Source: Escherichia phage fEgEco12. From it: a stretch of 64,000 nucleotides of DNA. Positions within the stretch are counted from its first letter, which is position 1; every line of letters begins with the position of its first letter. Positions 14,427 to 61,047 of the stretch are shown here, in pieces. The notes under the pieces were generated by a model. It had not been told where the DNA came from. It saw nothing but the letters and a program-made list of their open reading frames with translations, and did no database searches. Both the position numbers and the translations under genes were made by a program. The DNA is taken from the sequence record PP777464.1; one strand, written 5' to 3'.

Positions 14427-14750
14427 ATGGCTATGATCCTTGCCCAGAAAGTAGAATTGAAAATTGTAACCTCCTTTGACATTAACGTTAATCGGTGGAC
14501 TGATTCACACGGCAATACTTACCACTCTTGCTACGTGTCTGCGTTAATTGGCGACCGCTGGGAAGACCTGGGACACGAAACCTTTACATACGGTTACGGT
14601 ACACAAGGCGAATACACGGGCTTGGAGATCATTAAAGAAACCGTTATAGGTTTCAACCCGAAAGAAAAAGTTATTCATCGCATCGAGGAAGAGATCAACA
14701 AAGAAATAACAGTTCGCTACCACGATGTAAAACGTAAGAAAGACATGTAA
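14427..14750 (+). CDS. hypothetical protein, paralog of 7596-7919
   Basis: Promoter/UTR cassette 14339-14426 nearly identical to 14069-14156. Confidence 0.7.
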   Translation: MAMILAQKVELKIVTSFDINVNRWTDSHGNTYHSCYVSALIGDRWEDLGHETFTYGYGTQGEYTGLEIIKETVIGFNPKEKVIHRIEEEINKEITVRYHDVKRKKDM

Positions 14751-14772
14751 TAGAATCCATTTAAAGTACTAT

Positions 14773-14801
14773 TTGACATTGCCCAGATAGTACTTTATAA
14801 T
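14773..14801 (+). promoter_or_regulatory. sigma70-like promoter
   Basis: TTGACA, 17 nt, TATAAT. Confidence 0.6.
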
Positions 14802-14845
14802 AGACTCTAACTTGTAGTACTAACTCAACTAATAGGATGTATACC

Positions 14846-15241
14846 ATGATTACTAAATTCTACGCTACCCGTGAAGCTGCCCGTATTGTTGCACGCGAGG
14901 AAGGAGCAGCATTTAAAGACATGGGCAAAGATGCAACGAAAGGACAACGCTGGGCCGTACAGTTCAAAGAAATCTCTGATATTGTGAATTCACCTGAGCC
15001 AGTACTGACAGCAGCAGAACTAAAACGAGCGGATATGCTGGCGGCAATACTTGACGCACAAGATGAGTTTATCGCTGATTCTGATATCAAAGTACAGGTA
15101 AACCACACCGCATGGACTCACGCGGATCACCTGGCAAACCTTAAGCGTCCAAGTGAACTGATTCGCAACCAGAAAGAGATCCGACATGATCGTAAGGGTA
15201 ATCGTGTAACAGTATACAGTAAACGCCGCCAGGTTATCTAA
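14846..15241 (+). CDS. hypothetical protein, paralog of 2528-2794
   Basis: Shared N- and C-terminal blocks; RBS AGGA. Confidence 0.65.
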   Translation: MITKFYATREAARIVAREEGAAFKDMGKDATKGQRWAVQFKEISDIVNSPEPVLTAAELKRADMLAAILDAQDEFIADSDIKVQVNHTAWTHADHLANLKRPSELIRNQKEIRHDRKGNRVTVYSKRRQVI

Positions 15242-15829: not shown

Positions 15830-15886
15830 TTGACAGTACTCAAATGTTTTAGTACTATATGTACATACCAACACGGGGGAAACAAA

Positions 15887-16129
15887 ATGATTACTTTAGA
15901 AAAACGTATCAAAGAAACTACATCGCTGGTGGAACTGTTAACAGTACTCAAATGTAAAACAACACCATTCAGCACGCCGGACTTTATTAATATGGTTGAT
16001 GTTAATGGTCGCTATCGTATCACGGTCGAACAAGGAGCGGCGAAAGTATTCAGTACTAAAAACACGAAGGAAGTGATCCACGCCGTTAATGTTAAAAAAG
16101 TAGTTGCCATTGATAGTAAAGTACTGTAA
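15887..16129 (+). CDS. hypothetical protein (80 aa)
   Basis: Duplicated promoter as for 15611; ATG after RBS GGGGGA; internal Chi. Confidence 0.6.
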   Translation: MITLEKRIKETTSLVELLTVLKCKTTPFSTPDFINMVDVNGRYRITVEQGAAKVFSTKNTKEVIHAVNVKKVVAIDSKVL

Positions 16130-16160
16130 TATAGTTTCATTAACTCAAGGAGAACATGCA

Positions 16161-25071: not shown

Positions 25072-25318
25072 AATGAAATACTTAACAGACGATGAGTTAA
25101 AAGAACGATTAATTAAATCCAGAAAACTTACAAATCAACTTCCAAACGACACAAACAAGTCACATGCCGAAAGGAGTGCAGAAGTTTTATACATTCAACT
25201 CCTGTACTTTCTTGGAACTGACAGACAAGAGTATTACATTGAAAGTATGCTTCGATATCTTAAATTCTCTATAAAGGAAAAGGTACATGCTCAAGAATTT
25301 AAAAATCCTAACAGTTAA
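25061..25318 (+). CDS. A-family small protein
   Basis: Motif FLGTDRQEYY; N-terminus MQNEMKYLTDDEL. Confidence 0.6.
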   Translation: MQNEMKYLTDDELKERLIKSRKLTNQLPNDTNKSHAERSAEVLYIQLLYFLGTDRQEYYIESMLRYLKFSIKEKVHAQEFKNPNS

Positions 25319-25529
25319 TGAATATCATAAGATTGTAATGAAAACTAATAGTGCAATATCTAAAAAATCAAACCCAAAGTACATACTGGAACACACATTC
25401 GAAGAACGTCAATTAGCTTTAGTTGAAGCAAAACTTCTTGCACTCCTAGGAACAAACTATCAGGAAGAATACATCAGAAAACTAATATACCTTTTAACTA
25501 AACACATCAGGAAAAGAAAAAAAGCATGA
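25287..25529 (+). CDS. A-family small protein
   Basis: Motif LLGTNYQEEY. Confidence 0.6.
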   Translation: MLKNLKILTVNEYHKIVMKTNSAISKKSNPKYILEHTFEERQLALVEAKLLALLGTNYQEEYIRKLIYLLTKHIRKRKKA

Positions 25530-25756
25530 AGCACTTGACAGATGATGAACATGGGCTTATAGTAATGGATGTAATCAACATCGAATACAAAAAGTTGATA
25601 CGCTACCGTTGTTATGAAGATAAGCAACTCGTTCTAGCAGAACAGAAGTTGTTTCGACTCTTAAACACAAACTTCCAAGCACAATACGAAGAATCGTATT
25701 TGTACCTACTGTCGAGGAAAGCAAAAAGAGATTATGAAAATTTTAAGCCACAGTGA
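25526..25756 (+). CDS. A-family small protein
   Basis: Motif LLNTNFQAQY; ATGA junction. Confidence 0.6.
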   Translation: MKHLTDDEHGLIVMDVINIEYKKLIRYRCYEDKQLVLAEQKLFRLLNTNFQAQYEESYLYLLSRKAKRDYENFKPQ

Positions 25757-25949
25757 ACAAACAGAATTGTTAATCTTTAATACAAGTAAATTCTTAAACA
25801 TAACATTGTCTGATATAGATGAGGATGAAAAAGAGTTACTTAGAGCAGATTTAAGAGTTCTTTTATATGTTGGAACTAACTTCCAAGAGCAATTCGTTGA
25901 GGACTACATCGATGAACTTAAAGAATCTGTACTGAGAACATGCAAATGA
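25734..25949 (+). CDS. A-family small protein
   Basis: Motif YVGTNFQEQF. Confidence 0.6.
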   Translation: MKILSHSEQTELLIFNTSKFLNITLSDIDEDEKELLRADLRVLLYVGTNFQEQFVEDYIDELKESVLRTCK

Positions 25950-26182
25950 AAATCCTTTCACCAAGTGAATACCACGAACTATTAAGTAGTTTAATTCTAA
26001 AATTGTATATAGCAAAGACCACAGATTTACCTGATGAAGAAAAAAATATTCTAATGAGTGAAATCTATGTTAATTCTACCCTAGGGACTAACTATCAAGA
26101 ATGTAATATTAATGATTACATCAAAGAACTAAAAAGGTTTATCCAATGCAAATGCGAATCATTACCGACGAAGAATACCTAA
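25940..26182 (+). CDS. A-family small protein
   Basis: Motif TLGTNYQECN. Confidence 0.6.
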   Translation: MQMKILSPSEYHELLSSLILKLYIAKTTDLPDEEKNILMSEIYVNSTLGTNYQECNINDYIKELKRFIQCKCESLPTKNT

Positions 26183-26397
26183 CAATCATAAATGGACTGT
26201 TTTCGAAGTTATTTGCCATTAACACATCAAAACTTCCAGATACTGATAAAATTATTAAGTTAAATGAAATCTACGTTCAAGCTACTCTAGGAACAAACTA
26301 TCAAGAAGCCAATGTGTATAATTACATTAATACACTCAAAAGGGTAATAAAATTAAAATGCACAGACAGCACAAACAGCCAATACACAAACCCCTAG
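26146..26397 (+). CDS. A-family small protein
   Basis: Motif TLGTNYQEAN; close paralog of previous. Confidence 0.6.
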   Translation: MQMRIITDEEYLTIINGLFSKLFAINTSKLPDTDKIIKLNEIYVQATLGTNYQEANVYNYINTLKRVIKLKCTDSTNSQYTNP

Positions 26398-26597
26398 GAA
26401 CAGCAGAATACATTGAACTAATGGCTGCAAACTTCTCATCCTTTAAGAAACTGATGCAAGAATCAAATAATGATTTAGAATATCATATCAAAAGTTCAGA
26501 TTTAAGATTACTACTCACTCTAGGAACAGACAGTCAGTACAAATTCGTACAGGAGCATATTAGAGCACTTTTAAATGGCATCAGGGATAAACTATGA
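26358..26597 (+). CDS. A-family small protein
   Basis: Motif TLGTDSQYKF; start uncertain. Confidence 0.5.
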   Translation: MHRQHKQPIHKPLGTAEYIELMAANFSSFKKLMQESNNDLEYHIKSSDLRLLLTLGTDSQYKFVQEHIRALLNGIRDKL

Positions 26598-58970: not shown

Positions 58971-59819
58971 ATGAAACTTTATCTAATCGTTGACTACAGT
59001 AAGGGTTATTATGACTACGCAGAAGAATCTGAAGGGTATTGCTCGTCTACTAATGTCAATGTACGCACCAGTAGTACACATGAGCATGAATCTATTACAA
59101 ACCTAAAAGATTTCATCGCATATCGAGCATTTGAAAAGAATTTCTGTCGTAGTAGATATTCGAAGTTTGAGTACCCGTTAATTGATGTTCCTGATGAATT
59201 GATGTTCCAGTTAATGCTAACTGGAGTACAAGATTATGATTACATCGCGTACAATCACATTACTAAGAAAATTTATATCGGTACGTCAACACATGACATT
59301 TCTATGTATGCATCATGCCCGGATGATCGAATGAATGATAGAAAATCATACTATAGTGGATCAGTTGGTTCAAATGATTCATTAAATAAAAATTTATTCT
59401 TTGAGTACGAGTTTGATAATCATCGAGGGAAAAAAGACCGAGAAGATTATTGTACTGAAATTGATAGTACCAATGGATATGAAGAAGTGAAAGAAGCGAT
59501 AATGCCATATATCCTTGACAAGTACTACAAAGATTTTCAGTACTGTAGTAATTTTCTAATCCGAAATTCTATCATAATCGGTCGTCAAAGTACTGCATTC
59601 TCTAAGTACTACAATGATTCCCCTGTTGCTGAAAATGAAAACTGTAATATTCTCTCAATTCCACGTGAAGATATGGTATTCATGTTCACATCTTTCATTG
59701 AAGATGATGAGTTGTATGTAAAAAACAAGCACAGGTTCATGCCAAGTAAGATTGAGGTTATGAGAAGCTTAAGTGCAGATATCTTAACTAATTTCACTGA
59801 AAAAACAGAATACAACTGA
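58971..59819 (+). CDS. hypothetical protein (282 aa)
   Basis: ORF track; RBS GGAGA; weak B-like stretch DELMFQLMLTG. Confidence 0.6.
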   Translation: MKLYLIVDYSKGYYDYAEESEGYCSSTNVNVRTSSTHEHESITNLKDFIAYRAFEKNFCRSRYSKFEYPLIDVPDELMFQLMLTGVQDYDYIAYNHITKKIYIGTSTHDISMYASCPDDRMNDRKSYYSGSVGSNDSLNKNLFFEYEFDNHRGKKDREDYCTEIDSTNGYEEVKEAIMPYILDKYYKDFQYCSNFLIRNSIIIGRQSTAFSKYYNDSPVAENENCNILSIPREDMVFMFTSFIEDDELYVKNKHRFMPSKIEVMRSLSADILTNFTEKTEYN

Positions 59820-59849
59820 GACATACCATAAGTTTATGATATAATGTAA

Positions 59850-59881
59850 GGTGACAGCAGAATATGTTGTCGCCTTTTTTT
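59850..59881 (+). terminator. Rho-independent terminator
   Basis: GGTGACAGC-agaatat-GTTGTCGCC then TTTTTTT. Confidence 0.7.
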
Positions 59882-60501
59882 AATCCTGAAAGGTTCCATA
59901 TGGAAATGATTAAAGCCTAATCCACTCGAAAAGTAGAGGGTAGATGAGTAGTCCTTTCAGTACGAACAGCAAATGAAACCCGTTAGATGATGGCATAGTT
60001 TGAACCACTCACGGCAATGCGGCTGTATAAAGAACTCCAATAGGATAAAGAGAGTTCCTCGATAGACATATAAGGATCGCACCTTACCAATTATCTAAGG
60101 GAGATTTCATGAGAAATTTGCGGTCGTAATTTATACAATATAGTTGCGTCCAAAATTCGTGAAATCAAATACAAGTACTGGTCATATGGTATTTGTATTA
60201 TGTGTCGGGATGTTTAAGACCGACGACCGTTGCTACAAGAACCGCGATAGAGAGAAACAGAGCAACCCGCTTTCGCCTCGTAAGAGAATTCGTGATATGA
60301 ACTATGTGAAGGCCACCAGCGTCAAACTTTTTTTGTTCTTTCCCCTGCGGGGGGGATGAAATATGCTCAAGCAAACCCCGTCAATATTAATTAAAACAAA
60401 TCATAGTACTTTCGTCGAATTAGACATGCGAAGCGTGTATAATTCGACTGGTGTTGATGTAGTCAACGCCATGTACAGTCATTGATGTTTCCATAGGAAT
60501 A

Positions 60502-61047
60502 ATGATGTCATTTATTAAAAAATCTAAAAGCGTCACTTATAAAACACTAGAATTTGTTGATTCAGACAATCAGAACCAAGACCAAGAGAATTTTACTGGT
60601 TTTGTTGTGATTAAAGAAAAGGGATGTATTTCGTACATCAAAGAGTTGCAGTGCGGTTTTGAATTAACTTCCATTAAGTTATTCCCAACCAAGAAGCCTA
60701 CAATTCTTAAAGCTCGTTATGGGAACTACTACGAAGAGCGTTATAGTAATAATCTAATCAGTGCGAAAGCACATATCGTCAATGGAGAACTAGAAGGAGA
60801 ATATAGAAAATTCAACCCACAAGGAAAATGTGTTTGGGTTAAATACTTCAATTCAGGAAATGATGTAACATCAGAAATTATTGAGTTTTTAGGTTTAACA
60901 TGTACCCTTGAAACTCTTCATGATTACAAATTTAATACTGAAGAAGAGTTTAATCTGATGATGCGTTATGGATCACATTTTAAATTTTTATATGAATACA
61001 ACATTGACAGTAGTACTTTTGATGACATAGTACTTAACTGTCTATAA
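60502..61047 (+). CDS. hypothetical protein, possible MORN/YwqK-like repeats
   Basis: Repeats of G-x-Y-x-E and NGELEGEY / FNSGND; weak. Confidence 0.45.
   Translation: MMSFIKKSKSVTYKTLEFVDSDNQNQDQENFTGFVVIKEKGCISYIKELQCGFELTSIKLFPTKKPTILKARYGNYYEERYSNNLISAKAHIVNGELEGEYRKFNPQGKCVWVKYFNSGNDVTSEIIEFLGLTCTLETLHDYKFNTEEEFNLMMRYGSHFKFLYEYNIDSSTFDDIVLNCL

Follow-up and report, generated by a model that had tools for sequence, protein, structure and literature searches.

Evidence for a large pseudoknotted RNA gene carried in several copies by Rak2-like jumbo phages and shared with small integrative islands of enterobacteria

Here, we describe a 620-nt intergenic interval of Escherichia phage fEgEco12 (sequence record PP777464.1; positions 59882–60501, + strand, of the 64,000-nt stretch analysed, referred to as the window), which almost certainly is a gene for a structured RNA and which we call copy A because it is one of several related copies in such genomes. 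The interval is 100% identical, as the reverse complement, to part of the genome of Ecwhy_1 (MH791411.1; 354,537 bp; Asteriusvirus), a jumbo phage of the Rak2/121Q type; to convert window position x into the numbering of that record, it is subtracted from 309917. Upstream lies an open reading frame (ORF; 58971–59819) followed by a 12-bp hairpin at 59848–59876 and a T-run to about 59882; downstream, a gene for a 181-aa protein (60502–61047, +) starts with ATG at 60502, with a second ATG at 60505. A first-pass annotation, made from the letters alone, had placed the interval between two terminated genes. The terminator of the upstream gene is present, with a small shift in coordinates, and the start of the downstream gene is where it had been put; a recognisable terminator is found only upstream, that of the downstream gene not having been looked for. 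The GC content of the interval is 40.5%, compared with 34.5% in the window and 33.7% in the flanks, which places it in the 93rd percentile among 620-nt windows; thus, it is GC-richer than its surroundings, as had been noted, but not extreme. The short inverted repeats seen at the first pass are internal hairpins, among them the G-run hairpin, CCCCTGCGGGGGGG, which lies at 60342–60355, slightly shifted. Judged from the alignments described below, the whole interval 59882–60501 belongs to one conserved unit of ~625 nt.

The evidence for a folded RNA comes from covariation. We aligned 55 non-redundant copies of the element (<93% identical to each other) using MAFFT and, based on a profile-anchored alignment and a mutual-information scan, wrote by hand a model comprising 17 helices and 98 pairs, including four pseudoknots (PK1 to PK4). 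The model was scored against two controls, i.e., 500 shuffles and pairing partners slid by 1–3 columns. In the model, 94.0% of cells are standard-paired, compared with 77.0 ± 0.3% after shuffling (none of the 500 shuffles reaches the observed value) and 38–43% after sliding. Compensatory changes on both sides are found in 74 of the 98 pairs (51.6 in the shuffles; 32–38 in the slid controls), and the covariation score is 0.459, as opposed to 0.165 and 0.07–0.10, respectively. An earlier alignment of 20 copies had 81 predicted pairs, 44 of them with compensatory double changes. In the mutual-information scan, which covered 54 copies, the top pairs are almost all Watson-Crick, and all four pseudoknots, which are invisible to nested folding, were recovered independently. 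Moreover, 81 positions of the 55-copy alignment are invariant and 64 more are conserved in at least 90% of copies. These positions lie mostly in junctions and loops, and the invariant blocks between helices read GAUGAG, ACCCG, CGGC.A...GGC, UAAA, GAUAGA, AAGGGA, GACCGU and ACCCGC. By contrast, peripheral stems vary in length among copies, which is classic behaviour of a folded RNA. Because there are many G-U pairs and few mismatches, the folded strand is the + strand of the window. Altogether, covariation demonstrates, at the level of sequence, that selection maintains in the + strand RNA a fold with four pseudoknots and no fewer than 17 helices. Thus, the first-pass suggestion of a structured RNA is borne out by the covarying pairs, those of the pseudoknots included, and by a dedicated promoter. 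Two attempts at automated folding were set aside: RNAalifold on a MAFFT alignment of 54 divergent copies gave an inconsistent fold, which the hand-built model replaced, and its long-range pairs linking the 3′ module to GAUGAG and AAGGGAG were dropped because they are invariant and, hence, unsupported.

The predicted parts of copy A are listed in Table 1. The body of the RNA spans 59886–60301 and is followed by the 3′ module. The most conserved core, AUAGAGAGAAACAGAGCAACCCGCUUUCG, lies within the P10 region, and one paralogue class carries a CCG-UUCG-CGG mini-hairpin in place of P5. In the 3′ module, many paralogues have an optional short terminator-like hairpin just before the U-run; many classes lack both, and the copies in host chromosomes, to which we return below, keep the stem without the U tract. 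Stem and U tract are, therefore, not kept together among copies as in an intrinsic terminator and, with the hairpin lacking in many classes and the U tract lacking in the host islands, this element is best regarded as a peripheral stem and not as the 3′ end of the RNA. The downstream hairpins have a z of −3.9, with three compensatory pairs in the terminal hairpin. The G/C hairpin and an AAAYCCCGUCA motif occur in the 354-kb Ecwhy_1 genome only at the four RNA copies; being so confined, the 3′ G/C hairpin module was rejected as a general phage promoter. The first-pass annotation had also pointed out a Chi site in minus orientation. Its complement, CCACCAGC, is indeed present and sits within the conserved RNA motif YAYCAKCGUCAR; because paralogues carry CCATCAGC or CTATCATC at the same place, the Chi match is, on this comparison, incidental.

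Table 1. Predicted parts of copy A and adjoining features, in window positions (RBS, ribosome-binding site)
Feature	Position	Strand	Basis or remark
Promoter TGAGACA-N13-TGaTATAAT, extended −10, 10/12 match	59817–59845	+	Promoter scan
Intrinsic terminator of upstream gene 58971–59819 (12-bp stem, 5-nt loop, T-run)	59848–59882	+	Overlaps start of RNA unit
Predicted RNA, ~625 nt	59852–60476	+	5′ end from promoter, 3′ limit from last conserved hairpin
PK1: 59886–59893 (CUGAAAGG) with 59953–59960 (CCUUUCAG), in P3 loop	59886–59960	+	Helix 1, 92.9% paired, 6/8 compensatory
P1 hairpin UUCC-AUAU-GGAA; stem variable elsewhere, often GNRA-type loops	59894–59905	+	Alignments; outside scored model
P2 hairpin, conserved loop GAAAA(U)GUA, then invariant GAUGAG	59917–59943	+	Helix 2, 7/8 pairs compensatory
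P3 stem, 59948–50 with 59961–63, closes PK1 loop	59948–59963	+	Helix 3, 100% paired
P4 (59966–70 with 60022–26) around P5 (59980–83/59986–87 with 60009–14) and extension hairpin	59966–60026	+	Helices 4, 5
PK2: AUG 60017–19 with CAU 60067–69	60017–60069	+	Helix 6, 100% paired, 2 pairs compensatory
P6 hairpin	60032–60057	+	Helix 7, 6/6 pairs compensatory
P7 hairpin	60072–60085	+	Helix 8
Conserved block UAAGGGAG (AAGGGA invariant; flanks vary in few copies), mostly single-stranded; last base G60103 opens P8	60096–60103	+	Alignment
P8 long hairpin, conserved loop UACAAUAUAG; shorter or absent in some paralogue classes	60103–60166	+	Helix 9
Hx hairpin, 10 bp; loop 60181–60187 used in PK3	60169–60198	+	Helix 10, 10/10 compensatory
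PK3: 60181–60187 with 60295–60301	60181–60301	+	Helix 11, 99.4% paired, 7/7 compensatory
P11 hairpin	60203–60225	+	Helix 12
PK4: GUUGC 60229–33 with GCAAC 60262–66 (P12 loop); invariant GACCG before	60229–60266	+	Helix 13, 100% paired
P10 (60243–47 with 60290–94) around P12 (60250–54 with 60270–74) and P13 (60277–79 with 60284–86)	60243–60294	+	Helices 14–16, 97.6–100% paired
Repeat 1 CCACCAGCGUCAA, including incidental Chi complement 60313–60320	60313–60325	+	Alignment
U7 run; copy A lacks the preceding hairpin	60328–60334	+	Alignment
G/C hairpin UUCUUUCCCC-UGCG-GGGGGGAUGAA, 10 bp; the G-run hairpin of the first pass	60336–60360	+	Helix 17, 87% paired
Repeat 2 CAAACCCCGUCAA, direct repeat of the CGUCAR motif of repeat 1	60372–60384	+	Alignment
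Two downstream hairpins, 60414–60448 and 60449–60471	60414–60471	+	Conserved module in most phage copies and in island copies
71-aa ORF, TTG start, no RBS; not a gene	60144–60359	+	Frame broken in 121Q
RBS AGGAA and start codon of gene 60502–61047	60495–60504	+	Sequence, ORF list

Could the interval instead encode a small protein, i.e., could the 71-codon ORF at 60144–60359 or another short ORF specify the product? This ORF exists, and some GenBank records annotate hypothetical proteins there; however, it starts with TTG and lacks an RBS, and two 1-nt indels shift its frame in the orthologue of phage 121Q. Among the 55 copies, no ORF is conserved in strand, frame and position, the longest ORFs differing in strand and position, and the substitutions are paired and compensatory rather than codon-like. 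We consider a protein product scarcely credible, and the first-pass opinion that the ORF is translated non-coding sequence holds. Deposited annotations (WPEC5, WPEC3, JP4, E9.1, SHEFM2K, the SD-x Salmonella phages and gene 416 of 121Q) place one to six coding sequences for a “hypothetical protein” over the RNA locus; these are probably over-calls, and recognition of the RNA gene corrects them.

The RNA does not correspond to a known family. A covariance-model scan, which the first-pass annotation had proposed as a check, assigned no family: with Rfam 15, which covers group I and II introns, RNase P, transfer-messenger RNA (tmRNA), 6S, GOLLD, ROOL, riboswitches and small ribozymes, there were no matches at the gathering threshold in the window and none inside the RNA at E ≤ 10. 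Three loci in host islands gave only ffs, and eight further copies gave no match within the RNA. The scan is empty because the RNA family is not in Rfam; the structured-RNA reading itself is carried by the covariation. ARAGORN found no transfer RNA (tRNA) or tmRNA genes in the window. The papers searched on 121Q-like phages, CBB, phAPEC6, Sharanji and UE-S1 contain no mention of the element, nor does a survey of >10,000 candidate viral structured RNAs. Thus, the RNA family appears to be undescribed so far.

The element is confined among phages to one group. With the interval as query, 61 of 50,697 phage records matched, all of them Rak2-like jumbo phages, at four to five places per record; the hosts of these phages are Escherichia, Salmonella, Erwinia, Yersinia, Serratia, Cronobacter, Pectobacterium, Klebsiella and “Xanthomonas”. 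A second query matched 70 records, including RaK2 and K64-1. The comparison with related phages that had been suggested at the first pass, therefore, finds the element in 61–70 jumbo-phage records with four to five copies each. Pattern scans of IMG/VR gave 51 stretches, all on contigs of jumbo-phage size or fragments thereof, and the copies on any single contig are always co-oriented; a looser 3′ pattern returned only random matches in IMG/VR, none with nhmmer support. The whole genome of Ecwhy_1 contains four dispersed paralogues on the same strand (1.1–1.6, 113.7–114.2, 198.7–199.2 and 249.4–250.0 kb), which are 65–73% identical and each of which lies in an unannotated gap of 650–840 bp. The genes downstream of different copies are unrelated to each other. 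Overall, the copies fall into about five paralogue classes, each with one member per genome across genera and in conserved positions; therefore, the duplications are older than those genera. Between close phages, the RNA is more conserved than the adjoining genes: the interval is 95.0% identical to its counterpart in 121Q, compared with 88.9% over a 1001-nt stretch that includes the gene ends, and the coding flanks are, therefore, only ~79% identical.

These observations bear on the second suggestion of the first-pass annotation, that the interval is a remnant of a mobile element. A decayed fragment of a transposon or of an element resembling a miniature inverted-repeat transposable element (MITE), or else a GC-rich spacer with chance hairpins, would fit with the multiple copies in a genome, with the homologues inside integrative islands bounded by attachment (att) sites and with the short direct repeat CGUCAR that flanks a variable insert. 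However, the copies, at only 65–73% identity, still occupy the same syntenic places in different genera, the stretch differs less between phages than the genes beside it, and the covariation is far above both controls. Nor were the features of a MITE or transposon found: neither the self-comparison nor the alignments showed terminal inverted repeats, although no search aimed at inverted repeats was made in the interval. We regard this explanation as very improbable, refuted by the covariation and by the orthologous classes across genera.

Copy A has its own promoter (Table 1), and the same arrangement (TGRRACA-N13-TGnTATAAT) is present at 50 of 54 non-redundant copies. Ecwhy_1 has ~24 promoters of the form (T)G(G/A)(G/A)AC(A/G)-N13-TGnTATAAT, with 1.6 expected, nearly all of them on the main coding strand (the sites include 53577, 70708, 77131 and 100003 of its record). 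This class precedes the genes for topoisomerase, primase, exonuclease and DNA polymerase, among others, and all four RNA genes. It matches the “TGAAACG” class that lies upstream of DNA-synthesis genes in CBB and GAP32, and from that report we infer that the class is “middle” (PMC5259590). In the antisense direction, only a weak promoter-like site was seen. In copy A, the promoter is interleaved with the terminator of the upstream gene (59817–59882), and the predicted start at ~59852, ~7 nt past the −10 element, would lie inside the 5′ arm of the terminator, in that way leaving the RNA's own transcript without the full terminator stem. The same DNA would, thus, terminate incoming transcripts but not the transcript of the RNA itself. 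Most copies, including copy A, have no terminator at the 3′ end; rather, the last hairpin is followed within 10–25 nt by an RBS and start codon, and transcription of copy A probably continues into the gene at 60502.

This arrangement raises the possibility that the RNA is a giant cis-acting 5′ leader of downstream genes, which would act, for instance, by processive antitermination or through a choice, as in a riboswitch, made at the internal hairpin and U-run. The closeness of the last hairpin to an RBS and start codon in most copies, the internal terminator-like hairpin and U-run in many of them and the upstream terminator, which insulates the unit, are all in line with a leader. Nevertheless, the genes on either side of class C copies are on the opposite strand in Ecwhy_1, UE-S1, GAP32, CBB and others; these copies have no same-strand downstream gene in any genus and still keep every module, so that not every copy lies in the 5′ untranslated region of a regulable gene. 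The internal hairpin is absent in many paralogue classes, island copies lack its U-run, and the genes downstream of different copies are, as noted, unrelated. Moreover, in some copies a further promoter (TTGACA-17-TAGAAT in copy B) separates the RNA from the next gene, and the island copies read into the 3′ end of cI, which is convergent. HK022 put and similar antitermination RNAs are promoter-proximal and folded, occur at more than one site per phage genome and lie upstream of long co-oriented gene arrays. The RNA described here is likewise folded, promoter-proximal and present at several sites in a phage genome; however, those RNAs are about ten times smaller, and the class C copies have nothing to antiterminate into. 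As far as the sequences allow a judgement, a cis-regulatory leader is unlikely.

The RNA is also found in bacterial chromosomes. In a scan of one genome per bacterial species, with homologues confirmed by nhmmer, seven assemblies contain true homologues, several of them on contigs of chromosomal size: Citrobacter amalonaticus (620-kb contig), Enterobacter chinensis (484 kb), Enterobacteriaceae RIT714, Silvania hatchlandensis, and metagenome-assembled genomes of an Enterobacteriaceae member and of Buttiauxella. The remaining assembly has the homologue on a 2.8-kb contig binned as Clostridium. Of the metagenome stretches, roughly 70 of 108 are true homologues by nhmmer. Among complete E. coli genomes, 2 of 5,426 have an island with the RNA. 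In one of these, LR-29-1 (NZ_AP027515.1, around 3,479,000), a 10.7-kb island adjoins ffs at its 3′ end. It is bounded by a 24-nt direct repeat, one copy at ffs and the other, without mismatch, 10,678 bp away, and the RNA occupies an unannotated gap of 1.4 kb. The island core comprises an integrase (a large serine recombinase or a tyrosine enzyme), the RNA, an opposite-strand CI/S24 repressor, a Ner-like regulator, a 286-aa membrane protein, a 138-aa protein and a small serine recombinase. Each island has one copy of the RNA, which runs into the 3′ end of the convergent cI gene. No replication, packaging or structural genes were found in the islands inspected; thus, they are discrete integrative elements with an integrase and att repeats and without structural genes, as expected for phage satellites. 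The island copies of the RNA keep the promoter, the four pseudoknots, the 3′ module and the downstream hairpins. Because a tblastn search of the island proteins against the phage genome gave no homologues, the RNA is the sole component common to phage and islands. The island copies group with different phage paralogue classes; therefore, exchange happened more than once. The RNA is absent from the 72,556 plasmids in PLSDB.

Two further observations concern the layout of these elements. Minimal elements of ~6–7 kb adjoin ppdD/hofB in Citrobacter, Enterobacter and relatives. The LR-29-1 island (15880–26581, local numbering) has the att core, TGGGGGCCCTGCCA, twice more inside it in inverted orientation, at 19504 and, with a single mismatch, at 24347. 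As these two copies lie on either side of the RNA and its neighbours, they point to a nested or rearranged element.

How might such an RNA function? Tentatively, we favour the idea that copy A belongs to a family of genes for a stand-alone, trans-acting folded RNA (a scaffold, decoy or ribozyme) that the islands exploit. In this scenario, the folded RNA would itself be the product, a stand-alone and probably abundant machine, scaffold or decoy, which would bind a partner encoded elsewhere, i.e., a host factor or a phage protein in trans, or would act alone as a ribozyme. It would not regulate the gene that follows, and the reason for keeping several gene copies would be dosage. Copies captured by the islands would enable these to exploit, or to jam, the same partner upon infection by such a phage. 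We favour a stand-alone RNA because of the ribozyme-like density of junctions and pseudoknots, the full-length purifying selection and the fact that the RNA is the only component shared with the islands. The class C copy, which lies between opposite-strand genes and ends at a terminator, supports this stand-alone character. We are much less sure of a trans-acting scaffold or decoy mechanism than of the structured-RNA gene, and several observations speak against it. Most copies, including copy A, pass straight into the next RBS with no 3′ terminator, which is uncommon among free-standing RNA genes. A search for an intramolecular partner of the conserved direct repeat CGUCAR, made for both of its copies, found none. 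Replication genes have the same class of promoter, and in T4 the origins likewise share middle promoters. Finally, five ancient, dispersed, co-oriented copies, together with capture by islands that have no replication genes, would fit a cis-acting origin at least as well.

An origin or primer RNA is, accordingly, the strongest rival of a stand-alone RNA, possible in our view but doubtful. In this view, replication of the ~350-kb genome would have an origin at each unit, and the folded transcript from the middle promoter would prime or license leading-strand synthesis, in the manner of ColE1 RNA II and the oriF and oriG transcripts of T4. The islands would be satellites that pirate the origin of their helper and would, in this way, be first replicated and then packaged by the jumbo phage. 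In T4, several origins with middle promoters are dispersed over the genome, and a plasmid with such an origin is replicated and packaged when T4 infects. The units described here resemble T4-type origins in that their transcripts would start at a promoter of the replication-gene type, with the class assignment as “middle” being an inferred one. The four to five copies are dispersed, always co-oriented and at conserved positions (1.3, 114, 199 and 250 of 354 kb), and most have no terminator after them. Copy C is located where gene orientation switches divergently. The islands, which consist of an integrase, an immunity switch and cargo, lack genes for replication or packaging, and they acquired different paralogue classes more than once. 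Also in favour of an origin, the promoter class is that of the topoisomerase, primase, exonuclease and DNA polymerase genes (PMC5259590), and satellites of jumbo phages exist (PMC12595487). On the other hand, known origin transcripts need far less constraint than four pseudoknots and ~80 invariant nt over 0.6 kb, and close phages are 95% identical over the full length of the RNA. None of the PLSDB plasmids has the element, no copy is present at the other divergent strand switch (311 kb), and the whole-genome GC skew merely follows gene orientation and, thus, does not discriminate origins. A ColE1-type RNA II replicon, considered as a plasmid replicon, was rejected as there was no match among those plasmids. 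Taken as a whole, the proposal that the units are replication origins with a pseudoknotted primer or licensing RNA and that the 6–11-kb islands are minimal satellites with nothing but a pirated origin RNA strikes us as rather doubtful. If the origin reading were true, it would provide the first RNA-defined link between satellite and helper and a new kind of origin.

To our knowledge, large RNAs with such a conserved tertiary architecture are rare and have so far been ribozymes, ribonucleoprotein cores, guide scaffolds or self-assembling cages. ColE1 RNA II is a folded RNA of ~0.55 kb. Like RNA II and the oriF and oriG transcripts of T4, the RNA described here is promoter-driven and without an ORF; in contrast to them, its fold is far more complex, with four pseudoknots, it is on no plasmid, and no antisense regulator was identified. 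A closer likeness in architecture is to GOLLD and ROOL, which are cited as phage long noncoding RNAs (lncRNAs) (PMC7567579). They are also several hundred nt long and phage-encoded, with many helices and pseudoknots and conserved junctions, and their biochemical function is also unknown. However, the present family gave no covariance-model match to them, has four to five diverged paralogues per genome, is confined to Rak2-like enterobacterial jumbo phages and host islands, has a replication-gene promoter class and is not near tRNA genes, of which the window has none.

Large noncoding transcripts have been reported from other large lytic phages, which gives a stand-alone RNA some precedent. PA5oct, a Pseudomonas jumbo phage and distant relative, has four lncRNAs defined by RNA sequencing (RNA-seq) (PMC7318152), and ICP1 has an RNA of ~800 nt that its authors likened to GOLLD and ROOL (PMC7567579). 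As in the present family, these are ORF-less, some of them lying in GC-richer gaps; they are abundant, RNA-seq-supported transcripts of 0.2–0.8 kb (PMC7318152, PMC7567579). By contrast, they are single loci, with no structure or covariation reported. PA5oct ncRNA001 and ncRNA002 were rejected as homologues, since their sequences share no conserved blocks with this RNA family. The PA5oct lncRNAs (764–999 and 14452–14902, local numbering) occupy GC-rich, ORF-less gaps in an AT-rich jumbo genome.

Satellites of jumbo phages were first demonstrated in 2025 in Pseudomonas, where I55, with JPTI55, represents integrative islands that lack transfer, replication and packaging genes and depend on a jumbo phage, by a mechanism that is not known (PMC12595487, PMC12772148). 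The satellite-like enterobacterial islands have the same minimal make-up. They differ in size, as the I55-type satellites are 20–70 kb and these islands ~6–11 kb, and in that no shared RNA or cis element was reported for the former, whereas the RNA is the only link of the latter to a jumbo phage. Thus, a ~0.6-kb RNA with four pseudoknots, kept in four to five copies by a whole clade of 350-kb phages, is also all that connects, in sequence, the Rak2-like jumbo phages with the tiny integrative islands of E. coli, Citrobacter, Enterobacter and relatives, and this link arises just as the first jumbo-phage satellites have been reported without a mechanism. The question of what the RNA does is testable in tractable phages, i.e., 121Q, phAPEC6 and Sharanji on E. 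coli K-12.

As a minor observation, the window contains ten Chi octamers, GCTGGTGG, on the + strand between 590 and 19625 (~19 kb, in a phage of 34% GC), in unrelated contexts. The − strand has only three over the full length of the window, including the incidental match in the RNA. This distribution looks like an orientation-biased enrichment.

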